DNA from: Candidatus Daviesbacteria bacterium GW2011_GWA1_41_61
GTDB lineage: Bacteria; Patescibacteriota; Microgenomatia; Daviesbacterales; UBA10151
DNA: 64,000 nucleotides
Reading direction: 5' to 3'
Assembly: GCA_000997385.1 (NCBI GenBank)
Contig: LCBT01000003.1
Span: 64,892 to 128,891, forward strand
Position numbers and translations under genes: made by a program. Of this stretch, positions 7,376 to 53,772 are shown one piece after another. Each line of letters starts with the position of its first letter. Within the stretch, counting starts at the first letter, position 1. The notes below the pieces were generated by a model. It did not search any database, had not been told where the DNA came from, and worked only from the letters and a program-made list of their open reading frames with translations.

Positions 7376-7381
7376 GAAGTT

Positions 7382-8482: not shown

Positions 8483-8560
8483 GCAGGTGGATGGTAAAAG
8501 AAAAGAACAAGAGATGATTGGTGAAAAGGCAGCATCTTTTCAAAGAAGGGTGGTGAAATT

Positions 8561-9004
8561 ATGGCAAGTTTAATTCCCAGAGATTTTTTAAGTTTTCCAC
8601 GCCTTCGCCTTCCTTTACTTTGGGATGAGTTGAGAGAAGATCTTGAGGAGATGAGGGTAGGGATGATGGTAGTACCTCGGGGCATGTCAATTTATGAGGA
8701 TGATAAAAACGTCTTTGTTGAAGCCACAGTTGCAGGAGTTGATCCCAAAGATGTTGAAGTAACCTTTGATAAAGATAACAGGACTTTGTGGATTAGGGCT
8801 GAGGTCAAGAAGGAAGAAGGAGAGGAGAAAAGGAAATATTACCATAGGCAGGTGCGAACCTATTCCTATCAGGTCATGCTTCCCAGTAGTGTGGATACAA
8901 GTAAAGACCCGGATGTAAGTTACAGGAATGGGTTGCTGGTAGCAAAATTTGCTAAATCACCGGCAATGCAACCCAAGAAAATTCCTGTTAAAATAGCAGG
9001 ATAA
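8561..9004 (+). CDS. Hsp20/alpha-crystallin family small heat-shock protein
   Basis: Alpha-crystallin domain (YEDDKNVFVEATVAGVDPKDVEVTFDKDNRTLWIRAEV...LLVAKFAK). Good ribosome-binding site. Confidence 0.8.
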   Translation: MASLIPRDFLSFPRLRLPLLWDELREDLEEMRVGMMVVPRGMSIYEDDKNVFVEATVAGVDPKDVEVTFDKDNRTLWIRAEVKKEEGEEKRKYYHRQVRTYSYQVMLPSSVDTSKDPDVSYRNGLLVAKFAKSPAMQPKKIPVKIAG

Positions 9005-9006
9005 AA

Positions 9007-9654
9007 ATGTTTTTTGAAAACCGTCAGGAAGCAGGGAAAAAGCTGGCCGGTGAACTTTTTAAATACCGCAGCGAAAATCCTTATGTTTTAGCCATGCCCC
9101 GGGGTGGAGTGCCCATAGGCTTTGAGGTAGCTGAGGTTTTACATGCCCCACTGTCAGTGATCGTGGTTCGTAAGATTGGCTTATCGGGTAACCGGGAATT
9201 TGGTATTGGGGCAATTGCTGAAGGTGGTGTAAAAGTATTGGATCAGACTACTATCGAAGTTTTAGCTATAGATGAGGAAGAGATAAAGGATACACTTCAG
9301 TTGGAAGAAGAGGAGTTAAAAAGAAGAGTTAAAACTTATCGGGGTAAGAAGCCTTTGCCAGATCTGACAGGCAGAACCGCTGTTTTAGTTGATGATGGTA
9401 TGGCCACAGGGATTACCGCTAAAGCAGCTATTGAATCGGTAAAAAAACTTAATCCCCAGAAAATTGTTTTAGCTATACCTGTTTGTGCTTTGGACACTGT
9501 TGAAGGTTTTAAAAAAATGGCTGATGAGGTTATTTGTTTGGCTGCCCCTGCCGAATTTATGGCAGTTGGGCTTTGGTATAAAAATTTTGCTCAAATTTCT
9601 GATGAAGAGGTGGTGGATTTACTGAAGAAGGCTGAAAATTTTAAGCGGGTATAA
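9007..9654 (+). CDS. Putative phosphoribosyltransferase (type I PRTase fold, COG1926-like)
   Basis: PRPP-binding loop VLVDDGMATGIT. Confidence 0.65.
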   Translation: MFFENRQEAGKKLAGELFKYRSENPYVLAMPRGGVPIGFEVAEVLHAPLSVIVVRKIGLSGNREFGIGAIAEGGVKVLDQTTIEVLAIDEEEIKDTLQLEEEELKRRVKTYRGKKPLPDLTGRTAVLVDDGMATGITAKAAIESVKKLNPQKIVLAIPVCALDTVEGFKKMADEVICLAAPAEFMAVGLWYKNFAQISDEEVVDLLKKAENFKRV

Positions 9655-9661
9655 CTAAAGT

Positions 9662-10321
9662 ATGGGGGAGCAAGATTTAAAACAGGAAATACAGATTAAT
9701 GCTGACGGGATAATAATAAATGGATCTTTGACTCTACCCCAGAAAGCCCGGGGGATAGTTGTCTTTGCTCATGGTAGCGGCAGCAGCAGGTTTAGTCCCA
9801 GAAATAAATTTGTGGCCTCTAAGCTTAATAAGACAGACATTGCCACCTTACTGATAGATTTATTAACAGAAGAGGAAGAAAGAGTTGATGAGGAAACCCG
9901 AGAATATCGTTTTAATATTGATCTTTTAGCCAGCCGTCTGGTTTATGCTACGCATTTTGTCAATCAATCCGTAAGCCCCAAGGGGTTAAAAGTGGGATAC
10001 TTTGGGGCCAGTACCGGGGCGGCAGCTGCCTTGGTAGCAGCAGCTCAACTTCCTGAAGGGACTTCGGCCATAGTCTCAAGAGGTGGCAGGCCTGATTTGG
10101 CCGGAGAAGCATTAGGCAGAGTAAAAGCTCCAGTTCTTTTACTGGTAGGCGGAGAAGATTATCAGGTGATTGATTTAAATAAACAAACTTTAAAAAAGTT
10201 AACTCAAGTTAAAAACAAAGAGTTGGTTATTATTCCAGGAGCAACTCATCTTTTTGAAGAACCGGGCAAGCTTGAAGATGTAGCAAGTTATGCTGCCTCC
10301 TGGTTTAAAAAGTATTTATGA
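9662..10321 (+). CDS. Dienelactone hydrolase-family alpha/beta hydrolase
   Basis: VVFAHGSGSS, nucleophile elbow GASTG, C-terminal GATHLF. Confidence 0.65.
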   Translation: MGEQDLKQEIQINADGIIINGSLTLPQKARGIVVFAHGSGSSRFSPRNKFVASKLNKTDIATLLIDLLTEEEERVDEETREYRFNIDLLASRLVYATHFVNQSVSPKGLKVGYFGASTGAAAALVAAAQLPEGTSAIVSRGGRPDLAGEALGRVKAPVLLLVGGEDYQVIDLNKQTLKKLTQVKNKELVIIPGATHLFEEPGKLEDVASYAASWFKKYL

Positions 10322-38394: not shown

Positions 38395-39369
38395 ATGTTT
38401 ATGGCAGAAAGTTCCTACAAAAAATTATTAGAAGTTTCCAGGATAGTTGGGTTACCGATAAAAAAGATTCTGGATATTCTCTATTATCTTGGCAGTGGTA
38501 AGAGGATATTAAATAACAACTTATTGCAAACAGTAGGAGTGTCTAGAAATGTTTTAAATCAGGTTAAACAACAGCTAGAAGAATTTTTTATCCAGAAGAG
38601 CCAATTTACTGTGTTATCTAATCAAGCTACTACTATAGCTAAAAAAATATTAGGGGAAAGTTATACCCCGGAAGAGAAATTGATAAACATATCTTTAGCT
38701 AAAAATACTCAGCTTTTATCACTCATATCCCATTCTCAACCTCAGCCTATCAGGGGATATGATCAATTCTTAGCCGATTCTGAGACGGTGGTTAAAAGAG
38801 CTGCTTTAATGGATTTTTTTGCTGATATTGAAGGGAAAAGAATCCTGTTTTTAGGAGATGATGATTTTACCTCTGTTGCTATTGCTTTTTATAGAAAAGC
38901 TCAGACAATTACTGTAGTAGATATCGATAAGAAAATTTTAGATGGTATTCAAGAAATTTCAGACAGCTCATCTTATCAAATTACGACCAAGCCGTATGAT
39001 GCTAGAGAAAAATTATCTCCAGAGTTGTCAGGAAAATATGACATTGTTTTTACTGATCCTCCTTATACGAGAGAAGGTATAAGCCTATTTTTATCTCGGG
39101 CTGTGCAGGCTTTAGATCCTACTAATCAGGCTGGGAGGATTTATTTTTGTTATGGTAACAGTGACAGAGCTAAGGAAAGATATTTACCCATTTATGAAGT
39201 TATTATTTCTTCAGGACTGATGATCAGATGGGTTTTTGATAAATTCAACCGTTACAGTGGGGCAGAGTCCATAGGCAGTGCCAGCAGTTTATTTATTTGT
39301 GATGTTACCCCCAAGACAAAACCAAAAATTACAGGAGAATATAAAGGAAATATTTATACAGAAAGGTAA
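38395..39369 (+). CDS. DUF43/BpsA C-terminal-domain-like protein (putative aminopropyl-/methyl-transferase) with N-terminal wHTH
   Basis: RILFLGDDDFTSVA, DIVFTDPPYT motif. Confidence 0.55.
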   Translation: MFMAESSYKKLLEVSRIVGLPIKKILDILYYLGSGKRILNNNLLQTVGVSRNVLNQVKQQLEEFFIQKSQFTVLSNQATTIAKKILGESYTPEEKLINISLAKNTQLLSLISHSQPQPIRGYDQFLADSETVVKRAALMDFFADIEGKRILFLGDDDFTSVAIAFYRKAQTITVVDIDKKILDGIQEISDSSSYQITTKPYDAREKLSPELSGKYDIVFTDPPYTREGISLFLSRAVQALDPTNQAGRIYFCYGNSDRAKERYLPIYEVIISSGLMIRWVFDKFNRYSGAESIGSASSLFICDVTPKTKPKITGEYKGNIYTER

Positions 39370-39371
39370 TG

Positions 39372-39500
39372 CTTTTTTAAAGATCTGATTTCTTGAAGTG
39401 TACCATACATTAATACTTGGTGGACAGTATCCGGTGATCTAATATCTGCTGTGGTTGAATACCACATACGCAGGTGGTTTTGTACCTCACAGCAGAGTAG
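39372..39500 (+). repeat. Repeat R2 (99 bp) fused to an XRE-tail remnant, copy 1
   Basis: 39372..39470 is identical to 51823..51921. 39471..39500 encodes QVVLYLTAE*, matching the 3' end of the XRE gene at 43941..43970. Confidence 0.75.
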
Positions 39501-39576
39501 GATCTAAAATATACATCTGTTAAGTATCCGATAGTGATATGTTGACAACTGATGTAGAATAAACTTATCTTAAGAT

Positions 39577-40698
39577 ATGGTTGAGAGTTATACTGACACT
39601 CCAATTTCATTGTCTCCAGTCATAAAAGCAGTCTCTGGTGGTTGTAACTTACGCTGTAATTACTGCTTTTATTCTGGTAATCAGCCAGAAATAAAAAGGA
39701 TGAGTGTTGACACCCTAGAAGCTCTTACTAAACATTTATTAGAGTCTCCATCGAAACATTTTAATTTTATTTGGCATGGCGGTGAGCCAATGCTATTAGG
39801 AATAGAATTTTATGAGAAAGCGTTAGAAGCACAAACGAGGTACAAAAGATCAGATCAAGATATCCGTAATTCTCTCCAAACGAATGCTACTCTTATCAAT
39901 CAGGGATGGGTAGACTTTTTTAAAAGAAATAGTTTTGGTGTAGGAGTAAGTATTGATGGTCCTGCTGAGCTTCATGATTTAGTGAGGGTACAGACCGATG
40001 GAAGGGGGTCTTATGATCAAGTGGTATCAGGAATCAATCAATTGAAGGCAGCTAATATTTCCTTTGGTGGGATAGCGGTCGTAAATAGGATAACTGTCAA
40101 CCATCCAGAGACTATGTTTGCTTTTATCAAAGATGGAGGAATACCAATGGCTTTAAATCGGTGTAATGCTAACACTGATGATCCGGAAGAGGTTAGAAAA
40201 TTAGCGGTTGGTCCAGCTGAGTATAACGCATTTTTATTAAAGATATTTGATCTATGGATCAATGAAAATAATCCAGCGATCAAAATCCGTCCTCTTGATG
40301 AATTAGTTAGGGCAACCTTAGGCTATCATACAGAGAGTTGTAGCTTTTTAGGCCAGTGCGAAAGATATTTTACAGTTGATTTTAATGGCGATGTGTATCC
40401 TTGTGATGAGTTCCTTAATGATAGGTATCTATTGGGGAATATTAAAAGACAGGCAGTAAATGAGCTTTGGCAAGGTGGGGATTTTAGAAGATACTATTTA
40501 GGAAGGCGTGGTGTAATTATTAACTGTGAGGGGTGTGAGTGGATGGATGTGTGCAATGGCGGATGTATAAGAGATTGGGAAGGATCTAAAGGTATGTTTA
40601 ACCCGAAAGAAATTAGCTTTTGTGAAGCAAAAAGGTCGTTATTTCAAACTATAAAATTAAGATTGTCAGAGTTGGGATATACTAGAGGTATAATCTAA
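39577..40698 (+). CDS. Radical SAM/SPASM-domain enzyme (anSME-like peptide-modifying maturase), cassette 1
   Basis: CNLRCNYC radical SAM cluster motif, GGEP. C-terminal SPASM cysteines (CSFLGQC..CDEF...CEGCEWMDVCNGGC). Confidence 0.85.
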   Translation: MVESYTDTPISLSPVIKAVSGGCNLRCNYCFYSGNQPEIKRMSVDTLEALTKHLLESPSKHFNFIWHGGEPMLLGIEFYEKALEAQTRYKRSDQDIRNSLQTNATLINQGWVDFFKRNSFGVGVSIDGPAELHDLVRVQTDGRGSYDQVVSGINQLKAANISFGGIAVVNRITVNHPETMFAFIKDGGIPMALNRCNANTDDPEEVRKLAVGPAEYNAFLLKIFDLWINENNPAIKIRPLDELVRATLGYHTESCSFLGQCERYFTVDFNGDVYPCDEFLNDRYLLGNIKRQAVNELWQGGDFRRYYLGRRGVIINCEGCEWMDVCNGGCIRDWEGSKGMFNPKEISFCEAKRSLFQTIKLRLSELGYTRGII

Positions 40699-40723
40699 TT
40701 ATAAAAGAAAGAAGGTGAAAAAT

Positions 40724-40957
40724 ATGCTAAGAGAAGCAGAAACGGCAGCATCTACTGACGCAGAAACATTAGATCTAACAGCTGTTGTACCTGTTGAACC
40801 GGTAGAGCGAAGTGTCAGAGAACCAAACTTGGTCATTGAAGAGGTGCTAAAAGGATCTAAGAAGCTTATTACACTTTGGTCGGGAGATCATAGCGATCAT
40901 GTAGATGTTAACTTTCCTTATGGTGACTATGCTGATAGATGGAGTGATAAAGCTTAA
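40724..40957 (+). CDS. Small acidic precursor-like peptide (77 aa), cassette 1
   Basis: GAAGGTG ribosome-binding site. Helical acidic N-terminal region. C-terminal core WSGDHSDHVDVNFPYGDYADRWSDKA with repeated aromatic/His-x-Asp triplets. Confidence 0.5.
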   Translation: MLREAETAASTDAETLDLTAVVPVEPVERSVREPNLVIEEVLKGSKKLITLWSGDHSDHVDVNFPYGDYADRWSDKA

Positions 40958-41046
40958 AACTTTATCAATATTATATAATCAGTATTAAAGTATTTAGCAT
41001 CTTAGGGTATTATATATTTTCATAAAACGGAAGTTTATTTTGAGTA

Positions 41047-42033
41047 ATGACTATTAAATTTCAGATTTCTGAAACAGCTAATTTTTGGCATTTTGTGTCA
41101 AACTTAGTTAGTTGGCATGATAGTGTCAGGCTCTATTATAGAGATTATTGGTTAGATCAAACAGGTGATTTTACAGAAATAGAGGAAAAATGTTTAGAAA
41201 AGTTGAAAGACTTTTTCAAAAAGTATACATATGGGGAGAATTACTGGGGCAAAGTTTTTTTACTAGGAAATAATAATGTTTGGGAAAAAGCCGGGCAAAA
41301 ATTTACTGCATCTGAGATTGAATTATTAAAAGAGGCTTCGGAAGTTTTTTACCGTCGTTTTAGAAAAATTTGGGATATTGATCAGCATTTATTGAAAGTT
41401 TGGAAAATACGTTTAGAAAAGACTAGTAAAAGGTTTGTGACAGAGTCCCTTATTCAGGATTTGGATGTATTTTTTAATTACAAACAACCCCTAAAAAGCG
41501 TCACAGTTTTTCTTCTAATGTGTGAGAAAAGAAATGATCCGGCAGGGGGAGGAGCAAATTTAGGTAAAGGATATCTTACTTTGGAGGTCTCAAGAGCTGA
41601 TTATGATGCTATAAGGCCAGCCTGGCTACTATTTTGGCATGAACTGACACACAACCTCTGGCAGGAAGATAGCTCTACCTACCAACAATTAAGAAGAGAC
41701 TTCTCTGATCAAATGAAGAATGAAGGTTTAGACGGGAAAATTCTGCAAATACCTACTTCCAGGATTATTAATGAGGTAGTGGTTGATTCACTTTTCCCTA
41801 AGGGTTATCTTGCCAAGAAACATTTCGACTTTCCAGTTGAGTTAATTTTTAATCGTTTCGGGGAAGGTTCTAAAAAGCGGTTTAAGGTGGAGGATTGGCA
41901 TTACTATTTTGCCTATACTTTAAAGGATTTAGCTAAAGATTATATAGAAAATGGGAAGGCTATTGATATGGATTTTTTTAAAGAGATAAAAAAACAATAC
42001 ATAAGATTTTCTAAAGATTTCAGGAGAAGCTAA
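41047..42033 (+). CDS. HExxH-motif protein (putative Zn metallopeptidase), cassette 1
   Basis: WHELTHNLW. No other recognised domains. Confidence 0.45.
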   Translation: MTIKFQISETANFWHFVSNLVSWHDSVRLYYRDYWLDQTGDFTEIEEKCLEKLKDFFKKYTYGENYWGKVFLLGNNNVWEKAGQKFTASEIELLKEASEVFYRRFRKIWDIDQHLLKVWKIRLEKTSKRFVTESLIQDLDVFFNYKQPLKSVTVFLLMCEKRNDPAGGGANLGKGYLTLEVSRADYDAIRPAWLLFWHELTHNLWQEDSSTYQQLRRDFSDQMKNEGLDGKILQIPTSRIINEVVVDSLFPKGYLAKKHFDFPVELIFNRFGEGSKKRFKVEDWHYYFAYTLKDLAKDYIENGKAIDMDFFKEIKKQYIRFSKDFRRS

Positions 42034-42262
42034 TAAATCTTTAAAATTTTAACTATCACTGGTCCTCCTGGGGAGAGGTATTCTATTTCTTCACCAACTT
42101 TATGGAAAAGGATAGCTTGAGCTAGGGGAGCTTGAGGTGAGATATAAGTTACATCTTTTTTTAAAGGTTGATCAGTTTTTAAGCGATACAAATTTTTAAA
42201 GCAACACAGAAGCAATTTATTATCCATGAAAAAAGTTTATCAACTGGGGAAGCATCTGTGAC

Positions 42263-42751
42263 ATGAAAGTAACAAGTGTTTATATAATTGTTCAAAATAA
42301 GTTAAACAAGATATTACTTTCTAAAAGAGCAGATATTCCTCTTTGGGTTCTTCCAGGTGGGCATGTAGAGGAAAATGAGCTAGCTGAAGTTGCTGCCTTA
42401 AGGGAGTTTCATGAAGAAACAGGTTTGAAGACAAGAATAAAAACAACTATAGCATGTTACAAAAATATAGGGAGTAGGAGTAGGAAATATCTCTTTTTAG
42501 GAGAACTAACTGGAGGGAAAAAAACTCTTTCAAACGAGACTGTTGCCTTAAAGTGGGTAGATCTAAACCACTTACCTTCCCCTATGACGATTTATGAAAG
42601 AAGGAAGATCGAGGACTTTATTAATTACAGAAACAAAATTATTATAAGGGAGGACAAAATTAATATGATAGGGGAAATTTTAAGCCAGATTAAAAATCCT
42701 ATTATATTCGGATATCTGCTTTATCGGTTAATAAAATTGTTAATTTTTTAA
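42263..42751 (+). CDS. Nudix hydrolase
   Basis: Nudix box LPGGHVEENELAEVAALREFHEETGL. Confidence 0.75.
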   Translation: MKVTSVYIIVQNKLNKILLSKRADIPLWVLPGGHVEENELAEVAALREFHEETGLKTRIKTTIACYKNIGSRSRKYLFLGELTGGKKTLSNETVALKWVDLNHLPSPMTIYERRKIEDFINYRNKIIIREDKINMIGEILSQIKNPIIFGYLLYRLIKLLIF

Positions 42752-42782
42752 AAAAATACGTTTAAATTTAAAGTTTAAAAAT

Positions 42783-43148
42783 ATGAGTAATCATTGTCCG
42801 GAACGAATGTTAGAATACTATACTGCCGCACAAAATGCTTACAGTAATTGGGGTAGAGATCTAAAAAGACCTGCTCTATATGCTCTTCATAGTGGTTTTT
42901 TGCCAGAAGGACAAAATCTATCACATTTTTCTGTGCAAAACTACATGGAGATGGCTTTCTCTGATAAAGTTTTTGATCGAATTATTTTTTGTGAGAGTTT
43001 TTCCCATGCAACTAATAAGCCAAGGACGATATCGGAAGCGAGGAGGTTGTTAAAAAATGGCGGAATGATGATTATTGCTGACTGTTTTGTCAGTAGGGGG
43101 GATTTAACCAATGATCAACTATTACAAGTGAGGCGAATGGAGGTTTAG
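42783..43148 (+). pseudogene. C-terminal fragment of a class I SAM-dependent methyltransferase
   Basis: Has post-motif-I elements (DRIIFCESFSHA, LLKNGGMMIIADCF) but no GxGxG SAM-binding N-terminus. Confidence 0.45.
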
Positions 43149-43163
43149 TATATTATTTTGTGA

Positions 43164-43970
43164 GTGCAGAGAGAGTGTAATACACTTTTTAGCCAATTTA
43201 TGTTAACAGCTACTTTAGGAAGGTTAATTAAAGATCATAGATTAAGAAAAAGGCTTTCACAGCTGGAAATTTCTTTAAGGATAGGTTGGAGGGATACCAC
43301 CAGGTTATCTAAGATAGAGCAGGGAAGGGTGGGGAAACCTCTTAGGAAGACAGTAGATAAGATCATGGAGGCTCTAGATTTAAATAAGCAGGAAAGAGGA
43401 GAGTTTTTACTAGTTGGAGGATATCTACCCACAGATGAGGAAATTAAAAAGGTTATCAAACTGGTAAAAGAAAGAATAAACACTTGGCCTTACCCAGCCT
43501 ATTTGTTAGATTTCTCCTGGAGAGTTCTGTGTCTTAATCAACATACTATTGATATCTTTAAGTTACCTTCTGCTCTAAAGAGCATTTCTTTTAAAAAAGC
43601 TCCAAATCTACTGGAATTCCTTTTTTCTCCCAAGGAGGTTCTACCGGTTAAAATAGAAAAAGGTGATGATGACAAATCAGTCCAACCTTTCCCGATAGCA
43701 CAAGTTGCTCAATTTAAAGTAGAGCAAAATGGCAGGGATAATGAGAAGTGGTATAAAGATTTAATCAAAAAGTTGATGCAAAATGAGCAATTCCGTCAGG
43801 TTTGGCCCAAAGTAGATCCCAAACAGTATCACAAAAAGTTGTTAGATTATGAATATAAAGTAATTACTTGGCCAGACAAAAGTCACAAAACCTTTAGGTT
43901 TCATATTTTCACCTCCAGATTAATCCAAGACCAAAGGTTCCAGGTGGTATTATACCTCACAGCAGAGTAG
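43164..43970 (+). CDS. XRE-family HTH regulator with C-terminal domain
   Basis: HTH LSQLEISLRIGWRDTTRLSKIEQG. Its last about 29 codons (43884..43970) form the gene-tail repeat found at four other sites. Confidence 0.65.
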   Translation: MQRECNTLFSQFMLTATLGRLIKDHRLRKRLSQLEISLRIGWRDTTRLSKIEQGRVGKPLRKTVDKIMEALDLNKQERGEFLLVGGYLPTDEEIKKVIKLVKERINTWPYPAYLLDFSWRVLCLNQHTIDIFKLPSALKSISFKKAPNLLEFLFSPKEVLPVKIEKGDDDKSVQPFPIAQVAQFKVEQNGRDNEKWYKDLIKKLMQNEQFRQVWPKVDPKQYHKKLLDYEYKVITWPDKSHKTFRFHIFTSRLIQDQRFQVVLYLTAE

Positions 43971-44144
43971 AGTATTAAAATTTAACGTCAAATATTTGAT
44001 AGAAGAATCTTGCTAAATCATTCAAGAGAGATAAAAGGGGATAAAATTCCCATTAAAATCTTAACACTCTATCATATAGGGACTATAAACATTTCAAGTG
44101 CTTAATGTATGTCTGTATACCCAACTAACTCCAGTTTGCAACTT

Positions 44145-44654
44145 TTAGGTGGAAATGAGTTGAAAACTATCAGTTAAAAGTGTACTCATCTCTTTCTGGT
44201 AAAGGTAGATGTTTTCAAAGAAGTTTAAACAGGATTCTTTGAATTTAGGGAAAGTGTCATAGTATTGGTTGTAGGTAACTTTCTGATGAAACAGTCTCCA
44301 TAACCTCTCAATCAAGTTTAAATTGGGTGAATATGGTGGCAGGAATTTAGGGATTAACCTTGGATGGTATCTTAGATAGTTTTGGACCTGTCTTGAGTAG
44401 TAATACCTGGCATTGTCCCAAATCAGATAAATCCTGCCTGTTGGGTGCTTTTCTAATAGTTGGTCCAGCAGATTGATGGTGGAAGTTGAGTTAATCCTTA
44501 AATCTTCCCTGATGATTACATCATGGGTTTTAGCATTTAAGGCCCCATTTAAGTTTAACCTGTCCCTGCCTGTATTAGACTTAATTAGTTTATCAGTCCC
44601 CTTTAGTATCCAACCATACGAAGGTCTGGTATTATGCTGGGGATGAGTTTGCAT
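44145..44654 (-). CDS. IS630-family transposase DDE-domain ORF (+1 frame relative to orfA)
   Basis: LIWDNARYYYS, LPPYSPNLNLIERLW. 23 nt overlap with orfA. Confidence 0.7.
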   Translation of the reverse strand: MQTHPQHNTRPSYGWILKGTDKLIKSNTGRDRLNLNGALNAKTHDVIIREDLRINSTSTINLLDQLLEKHPTGRIYLIWDNARYYYSRQVQNYLRYHPRLIPKFLPPYSPNLNLIERLWRLFHQKVTYNQYYDTFPKFKESCLNFFENIYLYQKEMSTLLTDSFQLIST

Positions 44655-45174
44655 CCAGGAAGTAGATCTGGTCAGCTGCTTCTAACTGATTTTTAAGTTT
44701 TAAGTACTCATCTAAAAAGGCTCGCTGTTTGTCTAAATCAGCTTTGGCTGGTACAAGCTTGGGTTTCTTGTAGACAAAGCCTAACCTGTGGAGGAGTTTA
44801 GTCATACCAATAACTGAGTATTTAATGTGATATGTGGATTTAATATACCGGGCTACTTCTTTAGCTGTTAAGTAAATATGCTCACCTTCTGCTAAATGGT
44901 TTTTGAGTTCCAGCTCTTGGGTTTTGGTAAGTCTTGGATGACCACCAGTGTAGTGGAACTGCAATAATCCACTCAGTCCCTCTTGCTTAAAACTTTTAAC
45001 ATATCTCCTGATGGTTGTCTCGTCTAAAAGCAGTGCAGCAATTATCTGGGGATATGTGAAGCCTCTATGAACCATGAGTATGGCTTTGATTCTATCAGCC
45101 AACCTTTTGTCTCTTACCTGTTTATGTGCCTTTCTCAAAACCAGCACTTCTTCTTCAGTTAAAATTTCGGGCAT
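44632..45174 (-). CDS. IS630-family transposase N-terminal (HTH) ORF
   Basis: Helix-turn-helix region and HYTGGHPRL. Confidence 0.7.
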   Translation of the reverse strand: MPEILTEEEVLVLRKAHKQVRDKRLADRIKAILMVHRGFTYPQIIAALLLDETTIRRYVKSFKQEGLSGLLQFHYTGGHPRLTKTQELELKNHLAEGEHIYLTAKEVARYIKSTYHIKYSVIGMTKLLHRLGFVYKKPKLVPAKADLDKQRAFLDEYLKLKNQLEAADQIYFLDANSSPA

Positions 45175-45255
45175 TAACTATTATGGGATCACACTTTTAC
45201 CCTACTTGTCAAATTTTAGGTTGCAAACTCATTGAAGATTGGTATATGTACTCCT

Positions 45256-45528
45256 TTAGGTACATACAATGACACAATTGCAGTTACAATTAAAACAGCC
45301 AGCATCACAATCACAGCTGCCTGCATAATCTATACCTCTATCTGTTCTTCCCAGTGCCTGGACGAATGGTTGAGTAAAAATAGATTCAAATTCCATAGTT
45401 CGTCTCTGACTTTGCAATTGGGTTTGTTCCGCTAACAGTTGGTTAGCTGCAAATTCATATTTTGGTGTTAACTGCTCATTTTGCAATTGGGCTTGTTCCA
45501 AAGATTCGTTCTCGACTTCCCGCAACAT
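45256..45528 (-). CDS. Cys/Asp/Asn-rich precursor-like peptide (90 aa), cassette 2
   Basis: GGAAGGAGG ribosome-binding site 8 nt before the ATG. N-terminus MLREVE.. resembles cassette 1 peptide (MLREAE..). C-terminal core GSCDCDAGCFNCNCNCVIVCT. Confidence 0.6.
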   Translation of the reverse strand: MLREVENESLEQAQLQNEQLTPKYEFAANQLLAEQTQLQSQRRTMEFESIFTQPFVQALGRTDRGIDYAGSCDCDAGCFNCNCNCVIVCT

Positions 45529-45564
45529 TAAAATCACCTCCTTCCGATATTATTATCTTAGCAT

Positions 45565-46287
45565 TTAGTTAATTTGCTTTATAACTTCTAGAAAATCCTT
45601 GTTGTAGACATGCCTAAATTTTTTATAAAAGATTATATTATTACATCTATCACCCAGTGACGACAGAAAATATAAAAGTTGAAGTTTGCCATATTTTTTA
45701 ATTAAGTAACTTACTGCTCTCCAACTGTGCCAATAGCCCTGTATAGATGGTTTGGCTACATTCTTACTCCATTGTTTTGATGTTCCTAGCAAGAAAATCG
45801 TCCGGGGGTTAAAATTGATACTAAAGTTACTAGCTAAGTTTATCTGGCCAGCAACAAAACAGGCCAAACCCTCATCAAACCATTGCGGTCTATAACCTTT
45901 ATGTATTGCACTGGTAAATAAGTGGGCAATCTCATGGCAAAGGATCTTTTTAAACTCATTTTTATTATGATTACTCACTTTCTCAAATACTTCCGGGCTA
46001 AATATACAAATCTGGCTTTGGGTCGATGGGTCAGCACGACCTACCAGCCAGGGTGGAGTTTTATGGCCAGATAGATCATCCATTTCTTGGCGTGTATATA
46101 ATAAAACCAAATCGACTCCATCAATTTCCCTTTTGAAGAACTTCACATTTCTTCTGTAACATTGCTGCAACATTTTTTTTACTTCACCTATAAAATTGTC
46201 ATCAAATGAATAATAGATTGTACCTTTGGCGGTAGTACTTAAGCTGAAAAGCTCTCTTTTTTTGTTTTTAATCATTAATTGTCTCAT
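45565..46287 (-). CDS. HExxH-motif protein (putative Zn metallopeptidase), cassette 2
   Basis: CHEIAHLF. Lies between the radical SAM gene and the peptide. Confidence 0.5.
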   Translation of the reverse strand: MRQLMIKNKKRELFSLSTTAKGTIYYSFDDNFIGEVKKMLQQCYRRNVKFFKREIDGVDLVLLYTRQEMDDLSGHKTPPWLVGRADPSTQSQICIFSPEVFEKVSNHNKNEFKKILCHEIAHLFTSAIHKGYRPQWFDEGLACFVAGQINLASNFSINFNPRTIFLLGTSKQWSKNVAKPSIQGYWHSWRAVSYLIKKYGKLQLLYFLSSLGDRCNNIIFYKKFRHVYNKDFLEVIKQIN

Positions 46288-47647
46288 TAACTGGTTGAAT
46301 AAAGCCTAGTTTGAATAGTCTAAAGAAAAATTCATTCGGGGCTTCTGTCAAACTAAATTGGTCTTGTATTTCCTTAATTGTAAACGGTCTCTCCCAAAAT
46401 CTTACTTCTTTTAAAGCGATATAACCTAACTTGTCAAGAAACAGGGAAGCTCTAGGACCGTTAGAGACAATACCTCCAAAATCCTCTGACCTAAATTTTA
46501 TCTTCTTCCCCAACACAAGTTTTCTATCCAGAAGATCCATAGGAGAAAAAGTCTCAGACTGATTTTGTGGCTGATTATAGACACCCTCTGGGCTTGTTGC
46601 CAAAGGATCCATACCATCAATCCCGTTACAATATTTTGCATTCATACGGCAACCGGCTCTACAGCTAGGAAAATATTCGCATTCAGATAAACATCCTTTT
46701 GGAATACGGGAACCGTCTCTCCAATCCGTCATTCTCTTCCAGATATCTTCAAGAGTTTCATTAAATATATTTCCATAAACTTCATCGGCGACAGTACAAG
46801 GCCTAACATTTCCTTCAGCGGAAATCGCACAAGTTGCAACTCCAGCAGCACACTTTCTCTCAATAAATTTTCGATAATACCCCCAATTCCCAAGAGCACA
46901 TAAGGGATATGAGATTAAGCTGTCGACATGCATTCCCTCCTCCGCTTCTAGAAACAATAAATCGTCTAACATTTTCTTATAATCTTCCTTATTCAAATCA
47001 ATTTCATCAAAGTTGATACCACCCATACATGGAGAAACTTTAGTTGCCGAAAATGAAGAGACTCCCTTACTTTTTACTAACCTACCAGTATCTAGCACTT
47101 GATCCTTATTTAAAGCGGAGACTACCATATTTGCAGTGATATCTAAGCCTTCTCCTACACAAATATCAATTCCTCTAACGGTTTGTTTAAAAGATCCTTT
47201 TCTTTGTGTTATCGTATCATGTAAGGTGCTATTACTTGCATGCAGAGAGGCAAGTATTGAGTCTACCCCGGAAATTTTTAATTCTCTGGCTAATTCAGGA
47301 GTTATTAGAGTTAGATTACTATTTATTGAGCATGCAATATCGTATTGTTTAGCTAATTTTATTCCTTCTAATAATTTTCTGCTTTTAAGTAACGGCTCTC
47401 CTCCTGTGAAGGTAAGTGCTATAATTTGATGCTGAGCAAGATACCTGATGGTGGTTTCAAGTCCAGTCAGGGATAAGGAGGAATTAGAGTAATCCTTATT
47501 CAAGTCCCGAAATTTGTCCCCCCTCCAGTAGTTGTAGCAATGTACGCAATAATTGTTACACCTAGAGGTTAACTCAATCTGAGCGTCAAGTGGCCCGCTA
47601 AGAGTTTTATACACATCTAGCGAGGGAACTAGAGGATTTCTTTCCAT
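46268..47647 (-). CDS. Radical SAM/SPASM-domain enzyme, cassette 2
   Basis: CNNYCVHCYNYW radical SAM motif, SPASM cysteines (CAAGVATC...C..CEYFPSCRAGC). Start at the internal Met with an AGGAAAAG ribosome-binding site. Confidence 0.85.
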   Translation of the reverse strand: MERNPLVPSLDVYKTLSGPLDAQIELTSRCNNYCVHCYNYWRGDKFRDLNKDYSNSSLSLTGLETTIRYLAQHQIIALTFTGGEPLLKSRKLLEGIKLAKQYDIACSINSNLTLITPELARELKISGVDSILASLHASNSTLHDTITQRKGSFKQTVRGIDICVGEGLDITANMVVSALNKDQVLDTGRLVKSKGVSSFSATKVSPCMGGINFDEIDLNKEDYKKMLDDLLFLEAEEGMHVDSLISYPLCALGNWGYYRKFIERKCAAGVATCAISAEGNVRPCTVADEVYGNIFNETLEDIWKRMTDWRDGSRIPKGCLSECEYFPSCRAGCRMNAKYCNGIDGMDPLATSPEGVYNQPQNQSETFSPMDLLDRKLVLGKKIKFRSEDFGGIVSNGPRASLFLDKLGYIALKEVRFWERPFTIKEIQDQFSLTEAPNEFFFRLFKLGFIQPVNETIND

Positions 47648-47864
47648 AATCTTTTCCTGGGCTTCTACGCGAATACTATCATTAATAAATGGTACTGTCA
47701 AAAATTTTGGTTTAACACCAGCAGGGGACAATACCAGAAATTATCAGCAGCAATGAATGGTATTTGATAGTTGTATTTTGACAAACATGGAGATGTTATG
47801 TTATTAGTAAGGATGTAATTTAAGAAGGAAGAAAGAGTAGCTAATTTGATGTTAATTTAAAAAG

Positions 47865-49244
47865 ATGGGCATTGAAAACACTAAAGTAAATGTAGATAGC
47901 TTACCGAATGCCCCCAAACAGATATACAAAACTCTTTCCGCTCCAGTTACAGCTCAATGGGAATTAACAGATTGGTGTAACCAACGATGCTTCCATTGTT
48001 ATAATTATTGGCGAAATGATAATCCAGAAACTGTTGAGCCTTCCGATAGTGTGGGGCAGATTCATCATACAATAGCAAGGGAAATTGTGGCTAATCATGT
48101 TTTTAGCGTGACAATTACAGGTGGAGAACCACTACCTTTTATCAAAAAATATGCTGAGTCAATCGGATTACTCAGAGATGCAGACGTTGATTTAAAGGTT
48201 AATTCTAACTTAACTTTGTTTGACCGAGAGTATGGCCATATTCTTAAGGATTTGGGTATTACTTCGTTACTAACATCTGTAATATCTTATAACCCTAATA
48301 CTCACGATCGTTTATGCTGTAGTCCTGGAAGTCATAAAAAAATAAGCGATAATATCAGAAGAGCTTTGGATATGGGATTTAGAGTTAGCCCAAATATGGT
48401 TGTAAGTAAACTAAATTTAGGTGATATCGAGGGAACTGCAAAGTATGTAAAAAGCCTGGGACTAACTTCTTTCTTGGCAACCAAAGCGACTGCCCCTCCG
48501 AATTGTCCAGATTTTAGCCAATATTCATTATCACTAGAAGAATTAAAGATTATGTTTAATTTGTTGAAGAAAGCAGAAGCAGAGTATGGCGTATCTGTTG
48601 ATTCACTTGAGCCTTACCCTATGTGTCATTTTCAAGACCACGATCAATTAAAGGCCTTTGGGCAACGTGTTTGTGGGGCAGGTAAATCAATATGTACAAT
48701 TGGATTTGACGGAGCTGTAAGGCCTTGTTCTCACGCAGATCAAGTTAGTGGAATAATATCGGATCAAAACAGCTTTAAAGAGTTATGGTTGAAGCTACGG
48801 CCATGGCGTACTGATGAATATTTGCCTGAAGAATGTAGTAAATGTAGTATAAGAAATGTATGTTACGGTGGATGTAGAGTTGAAGCTTGCGTAGTTAATG
48901 GAGATTTAAAGTCTAGGAATCCCTATTGTGATCCAGAAAATATTCCAAATATTAACTCCTTGGAGCTAACATGGAAAAACGATGATGTTAAATTTAATCC
49001 GGGAAGTGCTTTCCAATTTAACCCACATTTAAAATATAGAGGGGAAGAGTTTGGGGGTATACTATTTTTATCTCCTAAAGCATGGGTGGGAGTTAATGAA
49101 TATATACTGACTTTCTACAAGAAAAGAAAAGACTCACCCTTTGTTGTTAAAGACTTATCTGATGATATTGGTGTTGAAAGAGGAAGTTTGGTTGAAACGA
49201 TGCATTTGTTATACAAAAAAAATATAATTGAAGAAAGGAGGTGA
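47865..49244 (+). CDS. Radical SAM/SPASM-domain enzyme, cassette 3 (paralogue of cassette 2 enzyme)
   Basis: CNQRCFHCYNYW motif, SPASM cysteines (CGAGKSIC...CSKCSIRNVCYGGC). Confidence 0.85.
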   Translation: MGIENTKVNVDSLPNAPKQIYKTLSAPVTAQWELTDWCNQRCFHCYNYWRNDNPETVEPSDSVGQIHHTIAREIVANHVFSVTITGGEPLPFIKKYAESIGLLRDADVDLKVNSNLTLFDREYGHILKDLGITSLLTSVISYNPNTHDRLCCSPGSHKKISDNIRRALDMGFRVSPNMVVSKLNLGDIEGTAKYVKSLGLTSFLATKATAPPNCPDFSQYSLSLEELKIMFNLLKKAEAEYGVSVDSLEPYPMCHFQDHDQLKAFGQRVCGAGKSICTIGFDGAVRPCSHADQVSGIISDQNSFKELWLKLRPWRTDEYLPEECSKCSIRNVCYGGCRVEACVVNGDLKSRNPYCDPENIPNINSLELTWKNDDVKFNPGSAFQFNPHLKYRGEEFGGILFLSPKAWVGVNEYILTFYKKRKDSPFVVKDLSDDIGVERGSLVETMHLLYKKNIIEERR

Positions 49245-49248
49245 TATT

Positions 49249-49464
49249 GTGAGCAAAGAAAACTCAGTTGGTTTATTAGATATACAAGTTGTTGCTGAGA
49301 GTGAGATGACTGCACCTAAGCAAGTGGATACCACTAAGGCTTATGGAATAGTTCCTATGTTTAATAATGTGGGTGGTGCGGTTGAAGGTGATATATTCCA
49401 GTATGATGATGGTGGTTGTTATGATGGCCCAGAATGCGATGAATGCGATCCTTCTCCGTTGTAA
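49249..49464 (+). CDS. Cys/Asp-rich precursor-like peptide (71 aa), cassette 3
   Basis: GTG start with an AGGAGG ribosome-binding site at a 7 nt spacer. C-terminal core DIFQYDDGGCYDGPECDECDPSPL. Confidence 0.55.
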   Translation: MSKENSVGLLDIQVVAESEMTAPKQVDTTKAYGIVPMFNNVGGAVEGDIFQYDDGGCYDGPECDECDPSPL

Positions 49465-49618
49465 AAGGATTATTTTGGTCTATAGATTTCATCTATGGGA
49501 ATCGAAGCTCCGGGGGTTTAAACTCTCGGTTGCTTTTTAAAAGATTTTATCTGTGATAGAACTAGACTTGAGTTTTTCAATAGGTTAATCTGAGTTTAGG
49601 AGCAAATACAACTAATTA

Positions 49619-50281
49619 ATGATTAATATCAAAGTTGCTTACAATAGGGGTCGTGATGTTCAAGTGTATCTGAATTATCTGTATCAATTTAAGTCATACA
49701 AACATGGTCGAAATAATATCAGAGAAGAATTATTAAACTCATACCCTGAAGAGTTTAGGATCGCCCTGAATAATGCCCCTAATAGGTTAGAGGCAGCCAG
49801 AGTTGCAAAAAACTATCTAAAAGATAGATACATAGGTAAAAGATCCTATTTCAGAAAAGTTGCTTTAATGTTAGAAGAGGCTTGGATCAAACAAAGAGCA
49901 GATATTGAAAGACAATTGGCCGATCTTTACGGTCAAAAAGTTCCTTTTCAAATGATATGGGTTTATTATACAACTACCCCAATTTGTCCATATAATTTTA
50001 GAAAAAGAGAAATTATTGTCTCTTATAAGCGTCCGATTGATGTTCAAATAAATATTTTGAAACACGAGCTCAATCATTTTATGTTTTATAATTATTTTCC
50101 AGAACTATTAGAAGAATTTGGTAAAGAAAAGTTTGAATCATTAAAAGAAGCATTAACAGTTCTAACCAATCCAGAGGAGAAAGGGTACCCCGCTCAACAA
50201 AAACTTCGTCAATGGTTAAAAAAACAGCAGGGTACAATCCCTGAGATTATTACACAGGATAAATGGAAGAAATATCTTTAA
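49619..50281 (+). CDS. HExxH-motif protein (putative Zn metallopeptidase), cassette 3
   Basis: KHELNHFMF. Confidence 0.45.
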   Translation: MINIKVAYNRGRDVQVYLNYLYQFKSYKHGRNNIREELLNSYPEEFRIALNNAPNRLEAARVAKNYLKDRYIGKRSYFRKVALMLEEAWIKQRADIERQLADLYGQKVPFQMIWVYYTTTPICPYNFRKREIIVSYKRPIDVQINILKHELNHFMFYNYFPELLEEFGKEKFESLKEALTVLTNPEEKGYPAQQKLRQWLKKQQGTIPEIITQDKWKKYL

Positions 50282-50326
50282 AGAGGTAAAAATACTTGAT
50301 GTTCTCAAACTGAGTGTTTATTTAAC

Positions 50327-50413
50327 CACAAAACCTTAAGGTTCCATATCTTTACTTCTAGATTAATCCAAGACCAAAGATTTCAGGTGGTGCTATGTTT
50401 GCCAGCAAGGTAA
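50327..50413 (+). repeat. XRE gene-tail repeat, copy B (orphan 3' fragment)
   Basis: Encodes HKTLRFHIFTSRLIQDQRFQVVLCLPAR*. Homologous to 43884..43970 with mostly synonymous differences. Confidence 0.65.
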
Positions 50414-50442: not shown

Positions 50443-50760
50443 ATGACTCAAGTGCAAATTCAGGATCAAATAGACTCTATTAAAAATCAACTCATAGAAA
50501 AGTACAAACCACAGAAGATTTTTTTGTTTGGTTCCTCTGTAACCGGAAAGATGACCGAAGATTCTGATTTAGATTTTTTAATCATCAAAGATGATAAAAA
50601 AGATCCATACAACCGGATAGTAGAAGTTTACCATCTAATAGAAAAAGATATTGCTGCGGATTTCCTGGTCTACACACCGCAGGAATTTAGTGAAAGGTTA
50701 AAACTAGGTGATCCTTTTGTAACTTCAATACCGTCAGAGGGAAAAGTCCTTTATGGTTGA
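50443..50760 (+). CDS. Nucleotidyltransferase (MNT-type, Pol-beta superfamily)
   Basis: LFGSSVTG....DSDLDFLI motif. Confidence 0.7.
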   Translation: MTQVQIQDQIDSIKNQLIEKYKPQKIFLFGSSVTGKMTEDSDLDFLIIKDDKKDPYNRIVEVYHLIEKDIAADFLVYTPQEFSERLKLGDPFVTSIPSEGKVLYG

Positions 50761-50945
50761 AAATATGTACAGAACATGACTTGGAGTTTAATAAATTTAG
50801 TGAAGCTTCCAAACTTTTAAATCCATTTTACATTGTAACCCGCTATCCAGACTTTGTTATCTCAGTTAATAAATCTGACGCTGAAAACGCTCTCAAGATA
50901 GCAGAAGAAATTGCTGATCTAGTTAAATTGAAACTCTCTGCTTGA
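50757..50945 (+). CDS. HEPN-like C-terminal fragment, partner of the MNT gene
   Basis: Only 62 aa with a TRYPD-like motif and a TTG start. Probably degenerate. Confidence 0.35.
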   Translation: MKICTEHDLEFNKFSEASKLLNPFYIVTRYPDFVISVNKSDAENALKIAEEIADLVKLKLSA

Positions 50946-51062: not shown

Positions 51063-51710
51063 CTAGATATGGGATTTAACCAACTTGGTAAAGAATCGTT
51101 TTATTTCCTTTGGGTCGGCAGGTGTAGTCAAAGGAGCAGGTACTATATCAAAATTTGATAAATCTCCAAAATAGACTAATTGTTCTAAAAAGATTTTTTC
51201 ATCAAAAATACTGCCGTAAACACTTTTGGCTACCGAAATGATCTGTTTAAGATCCGTATAATCATGTTTTAAAATGGTGTATAGGTCAAAATAATCCCGG
51301 TATTCACCTCTTCTGCCAATGGTATATGCCTTCTGTACAGCAATTTCTTGTACAGGGAATAAAGATAAGCCATCTTCTAACTCCAGGATCTTAAAGTGTG
51401 GTTTAAAAGGGTAATAAAGAAAGGTAATTTTGATATTGTCCTTTGTAAAAAAGGTTAGCTCGTCGGGGGTATCAACAGCAATATTGTTAATTGGAAAACT
51501 TTGGGAAAGTTTCTCCAATAGTTTTTTGGGGATCTGTGAGGTGCTGAAAAAATCAAAATCAAAAGATTTACGGTGGACAAGTTGTAAGGCAAGTGCAGTC
51601 CCCCCACTCAGTACAAAACCTTTGGTTAGAGGAAGTAGTGTCTGTAACAACTCCCTCCTTTTATTATCTAATATATCGAGGTGTAGTTTTAAGGTATTTT
51701 TGTTCATCAA
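51063..51710 (-). CDS. AbiEii/DUF1814-like nucleotidyltransferase toxin-family protein
   Basis: GFVLSGGTALAL..HRKSFDFDF motif. Confidence 0.55.
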   Translation of the reverse strand: MMNKNTLKLHLDILDNKRRELLQTLLPLTKGFVLSGGTALALQLVHRKSFDFDFFSTSQIPKKLLEKLSQSFPINNIAVDTPDELTFFTKDNIKITFLYYPFKPHFKILELEDGLSLFPVQEIAVQKAYTIGRRGEYRDYFDLYTILKHDYTDLKQIISVAKSVYGSIFDEKIFLEQLVYFGDLSNFDIVPAPLTTPADPKEIKRFFTKLVKSHI

Positions 51711-51822
51711 TTGAACTGTTGATATCTAGCACAAAATTTTTGATGAAATTGAGTGCTGGTTTTGTGTAGATCTTTTTGGGATAGTGCAGAAAAAGCTCCT
51801 TTAGCCATTTTTCTCCTAGTGT

Positions 51823-51978
51823 CTTTTTTAAAGATCTGATTTCTTGAAGTGTACCATACATTAATACTTGGTGGACAGTATCCGGTGATCTAATATCTGC
51901 TGTGGTTGAATACCACATACGTCTAGATTAATCCAAGACCAAAGATTCCAGGTGGTTTTGTATTTACCAGCAGAGTAG
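51823..51978 (+). repeat. Repeat R2 (99 bp) fused to an XRE-tail remnant, copy 2
   Basis: 51823..51921 is identical to 39372..39470. 51922..51978 encodes SRLIQDQRFQVVLYLPAE*. Confidence 0.75.
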
Positions 51979-53685: not shown

Positions 53686-53724
53686 ATAATAACCTAGATT
53701 TTCTTAAAAAGCTATTCTGAACTA

Positions 53725-53772
53725 GTTTCAGACCAAAGGTTCCAGGTAGTATTATATTTGCCAGCAGAGTAA
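53725..53772 (+). repeat. XRE gene-tail repeat, copy D (orphan)
   Basis: Encodes VSDQRFQVVLYLPAE*. Confidence 0.6.

Follow-up and report, generated by a model that had tools for sequence, protein, structure and literature searches.

Among the radical S-adenosylmethionine (SAM)/SPASM enzymes that modify peptides, PapB and QhpD form links between Cys and Asp or Glu residues. The triceptides, with about 3900 putative pathways, bear as their signature repeated aromatic-X-X3 motifs beside a SPASM enzyme related to the anaerobic sulfatase-maturating enzymes (anSME) (PMC11499958). Furthermore, α-ketoglutarate (αKG)-HExxH domains fused or adjacent to cyclophane synthases have been characterised (PMC12636437, PMC13060819, citing Morishita et al. 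2024), and these enzymes hydroxylate Asp and His and were long mis-annotated as peptidases (PMC12636437, PMC13060819). In the present study we have analysed a stretch of 64,000 nucleotides (the window) of contig LCBT01000003.1 from Candidatus Daviesbacteria bacterium GW2011_GWA1_41_61, a bacterium of the candidate phyla radiation (CPR; Patescibacteria). The window contains three genes for radical SAM/SPASM enzymes (rSAM1, rSAM2 and rSAM3), each accompanied by genes for a small peptide (pep1, pep2 and pep3) and an HExxH protein (hex1, hex2 and hex3), which an earlier note on this DNA had taken for crosslinking systems of peptides that are ribosomally synthesised and then modified after translation (RiPPs).

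We propose, with a probability of about 65%, that these genes form three independent RiPP-type cassettes of two kinds, each with a maturase of the radical SAM/SPASM type, a precursor divided into leader and core, and a zincin-type metalloprotease of the cytoplasm. The proposal is built on gene content, conservation, co-variation, motif statistics and folds, which are shown here. The nine open reading frames (ORFs) are present at or near the coordinates given earlier, and the three enzymes, found where the earlier note had placed them, show Pfam Radical_SAM and SPASM matches above threshold, CxxxCxxC and the full SPASM cysteine set. The peptides are conserved beside homologous radical SAM genes in many other genomes, so that the RiPP reading passed a check by which it could have been refuted, and the three core sequences and the motifs HELTH, HEIAH and HELNH are as they had been quoted. 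The same proteins, without any difference, are encoded by NCBI LBZY01000003.1 (GCA_000994095.1) and by several contigs from groundwater metagenomes. Among named homologues, the one nearest to rSAM3 comes from Candidatus Daviesbacteria bacterium GW2011_GWA2_40_9.

Precursor peptides

The gene of pep1 (40724-40957, + strand) starts at ATG 40724, with GTG 40715 as an alternative; a Shine-Dalgarno site, GAAGGTG, precedes the ATG by 7 nt. A perfect GGAAGGAGGTGA site lies 7 nt upstream of ATG 45528 in pep2 (45256-45528, - strand; alternative GTG 45537), and a AAGGAGGAG site 6 nt upstream of GTG 49249 in pep3 (49249-49464, + strand), whose longest ORF starts at TTG 49228. Since these strong Shine-Dalgarno sites mark ATG 40724, ATG 45528 and GTG 49249, the likely lengths of the peptides are 77, 90 and 71 residues, respectively. 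Independent gene calls on other assemblies match the peptide starts, and a 71-residue product is called in locus L006 (loci are numbered in this way throughout).

The three peptides have no pairwise similarity by BLAST. The MLRE[AV]E N-terminus that had been noticed in two of them is real, in that MLREAE opens pep1 (40724-40741) and MLREVE opens pep2 (45511-45528), with enzymes, cores and remaining leaders unrelated; the pep1 orthologue in L017 opens with MLQEAE. As the DNA encoding the two N-termini is not identical, they do not derive from a recent copy.

Cassette 1

The proposed maturase of pep1 is rSAM1 (39577-40698, + strand; 373 residues), which matches Radical_SAM (PF04055) with 72 bits and SPASM (PF13186) with 40 bits, carries the motif CNLRCNYC and is only distantly related to rSAM2 and rSAM3 by BLAST. 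Its earlier description as anSME-like is borne out by its best NCBIfam match, the anSME model TIGR03942, at 316.4 bits against a cutoff of 349.45. The next matches are the peptide crosslinkers DynA (238 bits), DarW (210 bits) and GrrM/OscB (181 bits), all below cutoff, and the models of the further crosslinkers DarE, YhhB, AmcB, FxsB and XyeB are also matched below cutoff; of these, DynA, DarW, GrrM/OscB, YhhB and AmcB form cyclophanes or ethers; for DynA, DarW, GrrM/OscB, YhhB, AmcB, FxsB and XyeB the E values extend from 1e-70 to 4e-27, with scores far under the curated cutoffs. The nearest solved structures are anSME (E=4e-59) and the radical SAM domain of ChlB (9e-25).

The core of pep1, LWSGDHSDHVDVNFPYGDYADRWSDKA, contains five aromatic-X-Asp motifs (HSD, HVD, YGD, YAD and WSD), all five in the last 35 residues, where shuffling gives 1.1 on average and reaches five in 1 of 5000 cases. 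When the last 35 residues of the cassette 1 peptides were shuffled, mean values of 1.0-2.2 motifs were obtained and the observed counts were reached in at most 1 of 5000. A first, word-indexed search found five hex1 homologues only, to which a metagenome scan then added L101 and L103. The trio of enzyme, peptide and hex1 recurs in four metagenomic lineages (L017, L020, L101 and L103) with hex1 identities of 38-69%, and the peptide cores keep 5-8 aromatic-X-Asp motifs with the distal leader diverging. Thus L017 (hex1 identity 69%) encodes an orthologous enzyme and then an 81-residue peptide with the core WSGDHSDHIDVNFPYGDYADAWSDKA, in which the core and the adjacent leader EPNLVIEE-LKGS are conserved and the N-terminal leader has diverged. 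The peptide of L020 (hex1 identity 41%), MSLLIEAIKEEVAKETVSVQPSYPDYSDWGDYSDTHGWGDNWNDSTQHTDSWDDSR, has eight motifs; L103 encodes an enzyme 47% identical to rSAM1 and a peptide with seven.

Cassette 1 fits triceptide logic because repeated aromatic-X-X3 motifs adjoin an anSME-related SPASM enzyme; from its sequences it looks triceptide-like, with an anSME/DynA/GrrM-like enzyme and repeated aromatic-X-Asp motifs. We met no statement on all-Asp X3 motifs in the literature, in which no search was aimed at them. The enzyme might also be read as an ordinary anSME, and the small ORFs as chance reading frames, given that anSME is the best match of rSAM1 in both NCBIfam and the Protein Data Bank (PDB). 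We rejected this reading, to which we attach hardly any probability: the score stays under the TIGR03942 cutoff, the synteny with the peptide is conserved, a pep1-type ORF with the same repeated motif standing beside the enzyme in five lineages, the pep1 ORF has its Shine-Dalgarno site, and no sulfatase is encoded in the rSAM1 neighbourhood, the whole genome not having been searched for one.

A regulator of the XRE/MLTR type (43164-43970, + strand; HTH_31/MLTR_LBD) is encoded beyond hex1. Its homologue stands directly after hex1 in L017, and the regulator is possibly linked to cassette 1. It was ruled out as a general cassette component, since the 80 rSAM2/3-family loci analysed below are without a homologue of it. 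Just upstream of the cassette lies a gene for a BpsA_C protein (branched-chain polyamine synthase C-terminal domain, PF01861, 150 bits; 38395-39369, + strand), a neighbour that is not conserved in L017.

Cassettes 2 and 3

Both enzymes of the second kind combine radical SAM and SPASM domains with a C-terminal winged-helix domain. rSAM2 (46268-47647, - strand; gene callers choose the alternative start TTG 47731) matches Radical_SAM with 79 bits and SPASM with 27 bits and carries CNNYCVHC; rSAM3 (47865-49244, + strand; 459 residues), divergent from rSAM2, matches Radical_SAM with 68 bits and SPASM above the gathering score and carries CNQRCFHC. They are 34% identical (E=6e-76) and share C-x3-C-x-H-C-Y-N-Y-W-R, the signature that had been claimed for them; they are old paralogues from different subfamilies and not the result of a recent duplication. 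rSAM3 has 395 homologues at E<=1e-10, and a scan of one genome per species yielded 220 loci of the family with CxHCYN[YF]W. The locus analyses cover the best 80 of these 220; at least 45 of the 80 carry CPR labels, and a few DPANN archaea and others are included. In the family alignment the SPASM cysteines C254, C270, C288, C324, C327, C333 and C337 are invariant, and C277 is kept in at least 90%.

The curated thioether-forming families (PapB, SCIFF, CteB, AlbA and SkfB) are all matched far below cutoff by rSAM2 and rSAM3, as seen for rSAM3 with PapB (66.5 against 340) and SkfB (43.7 against 300) and for rSAM2 with AlbA (66 against 850). The best NCBIfam scores of the pair are those of NirJ2 (128 against 500) and GeoRSP (95 against 400), and the solved structures nearest to rSAM3 are SkfB (7e-11) and PqqE. 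Both enzymes end in a conserved domain of ~85 residues, marked by the motif FRxExFGG...W..D..LY, and its profile matches winged-helix proteins (eS25, 1e-4; IclR, 6e-3) and, weakly, the N-terminal region of SuiB. This domain may be a leader-binding domain resembling the RiPP recognition element (RRE).

Sufficient sequence beyond the enzyme gene was available for 77 loci, and in 64 of them a Cys-rich ORF stands just after the enzyme; among 3966 small ORFs taken as controls the proportion is 7.1%. Such an ORF was defined by 30-110 residues, at least three Cys in the last 30 and a start within -60 to +200 nt of the enzyme stop, the controls being judged by the Cys criterion. Eight further loci encode a peptide of this kind in another place: following the HExxH gene, ahead of the enzyme, or behind an enzyme gene with a frameshift. 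The cores of pep2, GSCDCDAGCFNCNCNCVIVCT, and pep3, QYDDGGCYDGPECDECDPSPL, have Asp or Asn at position +1 or +2 of five out of seven and three out of three Cys, respectively. Across the family cores, Asp or Asn occupies Cys+1 in 167 of 358 cases, compared to 90.8 +/- 7.0 in shuffles, and is found within two residues downstream of Cys in 221 cases, compared to 154 +/- 8.6, statistics that overstate independence because the peptides are phylogenetically related across loci, which has to be counted against our proposal. The pattern is present in several distinct peptide subfamilies, and judged from these sequences the enrichment is compatible with thioethers from Cys to Asp or Asn.

Peptide subfamily, HExxH family and gene orientation co-vary across the loci. 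Peptides with GIVSL-type leaders and CDxCD cores accompany hex3-like genes on the same strand, the arrangement of cassette 3; hex3-like genes in convergent orientation are found with GFETLL leaders and CDCYDCDYNCEECD cores, and FFVNP..VINR leaders and GCQCVSCRSCDNxCNK cores with hex2-like genes. The leader motif GIVPM of pep3 recurs in peptides of hex3-type loci, and many family peptides carry a leader motif resembling G-[FI]-x-[ST]-L-L. In the subfamily closest to cassette 2, PPPPC-repeat peptides follow an overlapping hex2-like gene. The order of enzyme, peptide and HExxH protein, previously ascribed to all three cassettes, is correct for the first and the third only. In cassette 2 the HExxH protein stands between enzyme and peptide, an arrangement that its subfamily conserves and that is seen in L042, L046, L056 and L058.

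Some further observations concern these loci. The locus of L014/L015 (candidate division WWE3; 5001-9741) encodes a family enzyme, a 49-residue Cys/Asp/Glu peptide and two tandem Peptidase_MA_2-like HExxH proteins, together with a second radical SAM/SPASM enzyme with an N-terminal PqqD-like segment; multi-cassette loci therefore exist elsewhere in the CPR. Between pep3 and hex3 there is a terminator-like hairpin (49510-49529, + strand) with an 8-bp stem, 5 GC pairs and a T-rich tail, a possible attenuator; the overall yield of the promoter and terminator scans was not above shuffle expectation. A scan of the whole window for RNA families, riboswitches included, gave a tRNA only.

HExxH proteins

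The HExxH motif had been given as the only recognisable feature of the three partner proteins. This holds for hex1 (41047-42033, + strand; 328 residues; WHELTH) and hex3 (49619-50281, + strand; 220 residues; HELNHFMF), zincin-fold proteins that match no Pfam or NCBIfam family even at E<=10. It does not hold for hex2 (45565-46287, - strand; 240 residues; HEIAH), the gene of which overlaps the rSAM2 stop codon and which is a Peptidase_MA_2 metalloprotease (PF13485, 35.3 bits, the gathering score being 32.4). None of the three is similar to another by pairwise BLAST.

An exhaustive search gave 330 cluster representatives of hex1, in which H198, E199, H202, E243 and Y299 are invariant; hex3 has 53 unannotated homologues with HELNH, E173 and E177 invariant. 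Profile-profile comparison by hhalign with a shallow hex1 alignment gave a probability of 0.8% for the pair, and with widened alignments 97.1% (E=5e-11) over the whole length of 199 columns, E243 of hex1 aligning with E177 of hex3. The relationship of hex2 to hex1 is confined to the region around the sheet and the HExxH helix (82%), and to hex3 it is barely detectable (40%). From these comparisons hex1 and hex3 are remote homologues in a new gluzincin-like family and hex2 is a Peptidase_MA_2 protein, and the single partner family that had been supposed becomes two. Against PDB sequences the hex1 profile weakly retrieved Wss1 and proabylysin, and the hex3 profile nothing meaningful. The modelled structures of hex1 and hex3 display a predicted gluzincin fold closest to the M1 peptidases, then to M30 lugdulysin and Wss1. 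The features of gluzincins (clan MA(E)), namely HExxH with a conserved downstream Glu and a thermolysin/M1-like catalytic fold, are present.

Among the 80 loci of the rSAM2/3 family, hex2-like proteins occur in 34 (35 ORFs), hex3-like proteins in 25 and either of them in 58; HExxH is intact in all 61 of these proteins. The closest homologues of hex2 (E 1e-48 to 8e-58) are found in L042, L046, L056 and L058. Leader removal is the likeliest role of the HExxH proteins, and it is the most economical one because two zincin families with a gluzincin-type Glu fill a single cassette slot, which points to peptide-bond hydrolysis as the activity that zincins share.

The same proteins, and hex1 especially, would in an alternative explanation be tailoring oxygenases like the αKG-dependent HExxH enzymes instead of proteases, acting by beta-hydroxylation of Asp or His on a pre-formed cyclophane, as in ChlBH, or by oxidative backbone cleavage, as in PflC. 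The fold of the αKG-HExxH enzymes is zincin-like, which went with an initial mis-annotation as peptidases, and their partners are radical SAM enzymes that form cyclophanes (PMC12636437, PMC13060819); pep1 is rich in Asp and His, their known targets; the impression that such an HExxH partner had no precedent is therefore set aside by the αKG-HExxH domains next to cyclophane synthases (PMC12636437, PMC13060819). This explanation is the main rival of leader removal and has to be taken seriously, yet we regard it as unlikely. TIGR04267/IPR026337 is not matched by hex1 or hex3 in NCBIfam at E<=10, on which ground membership of the αKG-HExxH family was rejected for both, and hex2 matches only flagellinolysin, weakly. 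In structural comparison M1 and M30 peptidases outscore ChlH for both models (ChlH and SjiH score 6.3 and 5.8 with modelled hex3, and 5.4 and 4.7 with modelled hex1); the conserved downstream Glu, plus the conserved Tyr in hex1, fits the gluzincin pattern, and the hex2-type partners are Peptidase_MA_2. A step dependent on O2 and αKG would also be less expected in groundwater CPR hosts with oxygen-sensitive radical SAM enzymes.

An additional hex1-family protein (E=6e-89 to the family profile) is encoded in L057 (Candidatus Azambacteria; 7948-8967, - strand). At a distance of 2.6 kb from it lies a cassette of the rSAM2/3 type, to which a separate hex3-like gene belongs.

Genomic context of the cassettes

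The region of the window at ~32-54 kb has a GC content of 34-37%, compared to 39-45% in the first 32 kb upstream, a drop that fits an accessory or horizontally acquired region. Besides the cassettes it carries an element of the IS630 insertion sequence family, AbiE genes, an MNT/HEPN pair and part of an integrase gene. The 3' end of the XRE/MLTR-type regulator (last 19-28 codons plus stop; source copy at 43884-43970, + strand) recurs as direct remnants at the module borders. One copy (39471-39509, + strand) lies upstream of cassette 1 and is 85% identical to 43941-43979, with 0 chance matches expected; another (50324/50327-50412, + strand), downstream of cassette 3, is 80% identical over 86 nt to 43884-43969 and is translated as HKTLRFHIFTSRLIQDQRFQVVLCLPAR followed by a stop. 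Further remnants are found at 51919-51975 and 53716-53769, both on the + strand. Between these borders lie, in turn, cassette 1, a module formed by the IS630 element and cassettes 2 and 3, a module of MNT/HEPN and AbiE, and further ORFs. The pattern suggests that insertion or recombination took place repeatedly at the regulator 3' end, as in an att-like hot spot. On this reading the tripling would be an accretion of accessory modules and not one coordinated system, and the clustering of the cassettes probably reflects serial insertion.

The IS630-family element (44145-45174, - strand) consists of an HTH ORF of 180 residues and a DDE_3 ORF of 169 residues, split by a frameshift; it comes within ~80 nt of the 3' end of pep2, and imperfect inverted repeats lie beside it at 44116-44142 and 45220-45246. 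Immediately downstream of cassette 3 there is a nucleotidyltransferase/HEPN pair (50443-50945) followed by AbiEii/AbiEi-like genes (51063-51918), which are toxin-antitoxin or abortive-infection modules. Carriage by phage was rejected, no relative being present in viral contigs.

Proposed mechanism and its alternatives

In cassette 1, the anSME-like enzyme would abstract a hydrogen from the Asp beta-carbon of each aromatic-X-Asp motif, and this carbon would be joined to the ring of the Trp, Tyr or His that lies two positions upstream, leading to a string of three-residue cyclophanes as in the triceptides. In cassettes 2 and 3, the leader may dock on the C-terminal winged-helix, RRE-like domain of the enzyme, with formation of intramolecular thioethers between the Cys sulfur and a neighbouring Asp, Asn or Glu, a chemistry that would be like that of the ranthipeptides and QhpD with a shorter spacing. 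The HExxH protein would then remove the leader. Crosslink chemistry, peptidase role and the final function of the peptides are what we infer here from the genes and their conservation.

Several observations weigh against this proposal. No NCBIfam model of a named maturase family reaches its cutoff for rSAM1, rSAM2 or rSAM3, no PqqD/RRE Pfam match was obtained for the C-terminal domain of rSAM2 and rSAM3, and none of the three cassettes contains a transporter. A hex2-like or hex3-like protein is missing from 22 of the 80 loci of the rSAM2/3 family, many of them truncated. Distant members of the hex1 family (23-29% identity) are not beside radical SAM genes, and the strain L104 has retained the hex1-like gene of L103, to which it is ~96% identical, without the enzyme and peptide genes (metagenome contigs Ga0272448_1000372 and Ga0101944_10004089, respectively, the identity being that across the hex1-like gene and downstream). 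The bond between the hex1 family and the cassette is thus not a strict one.

Instead of giving secreted products, the peptides might give rise to molecules that bind metals or serve in redox reactions inside the cell, like pyrroloquinoline quinone (PQQ) or mycofactocin. The systems of these two also bring together a small peptide, a domain that binds it, a radical SAM/SPASM enzyme and a peptidase. Exporters are lacking from the three cassettes and most related loci, the sequences of the HExxH proteins are all without signal peptides, and the cores are made almost wholly of the metal-ligand residues Cys, His and Asp. Furthermore, rSAM2 and rSAM3 match models of the MftC, PqqE and NirJ/AhbD type about as well as those of peptide maturases, and their family is widespread in tiny genomes. 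However, the cores are highly variable between subfamilies, whereas those of cofactor precursors are fixed; the cassette is accessory, being present or absent between strains and sitting in a mobile low-GC patchwork, and no further cofactor-pathway genes are found nearby. On balance we hold such a role to be improbable.

A joint alternative, to which we also give a small probability, would unite both kinds of cassette. The enzymes would install an undescribed crosslink giving very small rings, from Cys or an aromatic residue to an Asp or Asn one or two positions downstream, by a shared Asp beta-carbon radical logic; hex1 and hex3 would be metal-dependent tailoring enzymes of a new kind acting on the rings and not plain leader peptidases, and episymbiotic CPR bacteria would use the products within the cell to bind metals or to signal.

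Novelty and significance

Under our proposal of maturase, precursor and metalloprotease, radical SAM/SPASM RiPPs with a protease are already known in kind. We found no prior description of a ranthipeptide or radical SAM RiPP system like this in CPR/Patescibacteria in a literature coverage that is incomplete. Four components have neither a curated model nor a description that we could locate: the CPR-wide enzyme subfamily with its C-terminal winged-helix domain, the Cys-Asp/Asn peptides, the all-Asp aromatic-X-Asp peptides and the hex1/hex3 zincin family.

The genomes of CPR/Patescibacteria are tiny and usually reported as nearly devoid of biosynthetic gene clusters. A radical SAM/SPASM cassette family is present in at least 220 species-level genomes, yet no Pfam or NCBIfam model exists for the enzyme subfamily, the peptides or hex1/hex3. 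The three compact three-gene systems, of 2.5-3 kb each, are directly expressible for RiPP chemistry and offer a possible all-Asp triceptide together with an unexplored Cys-Asp/Asn crosslinking family. The new zincin family, as leader peptidase or oxygenase, provides a clean test case, and the peptides are candidates for the interaction of episymbionts with hosts or competitors.

Comparison with known systems

Cassette 1 is closest to the triceptide systems, in which the 3-CyFE enzymes (XyeB, GrrM/OscB, YhhB, HaaB, HtkB and ChlB) are, like rSAM1, of the SPASM type, related to anSME and devoid of a separate RRE. Their precursors, like pep1, have a core of repeated aromatic-X-X3 motifs; His, Tyr and Trp as found in pep1 take the aromatic position in Yhh, Haa and Htk (PMC11499958), and the Chl and Fxs clusters also encode an HExxH protein. 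The differences are that X3 is Asp in every motif of cassette 1, with 5-8 motifs per peptide, that rSAM1 is nearer to anSME than to any curated triceptide model, all being below cutoff, that its HExxH partner comes from an unrelated gluzincin-like family and not from IPR026337, and that the host belongs to the CPR.

The αKG-HExxH oxygenases (ChlH/ChlBH, BpmH, PflC and PesO; IPR026337/TIGR04267) share with our proteins the HExxH motif, a zincin-like fold and a position beside or fused to RiPP radical SAM enzymes, and their substrates include Asp and His. In contrast to them, our proteins give no match to the sequence model and, as modelled, score lower with them than with true peptidases, and hex1 and hex3 keep the gluzincin-type downstream Glu.

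In the ACGX-repeat system (TIGR04340), too, a radical SAM/SPASM enzyme is accompanied by a peptide built from short tandem repeats with Cys, similar to some peptides of the rSAM2/3 family such as the (GCDx)n repeats of L012. It differs in the repeat unit, and TIGR04340 scores only 59-72 bits against a cutoff of 400; we know of no zincin partner described for it.

The ranthipeptide and sactipeptide maturases (PapB/freyrasin, CteB, the SCIFF maturase and SkfB) and QhpD resemble cassettes 2 and 3 in the combination of a radical SAM/SPASM enzyme with a winged-helix domain, which in rSAM2 and rSAM3 may bind the peptide, and in a core rich in Cys whose acidic or amide residues are the likely acceptors, the sactisynthase SkfB being the closest solved structure to rSAM3. 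The scores with the PapB, SCIFF and CteB models are, however, far below cutoff (66 against 340 for PapB). The winged-helix domain of rSAM2 and rSAM3 is C-terminal instead of N-terminal, the Asp or Asn stands at Cys +1 or +2 and not in a CxxxD spacing, and a dedicated zincin gene is the conserved third component of cassettes 2 and 3.

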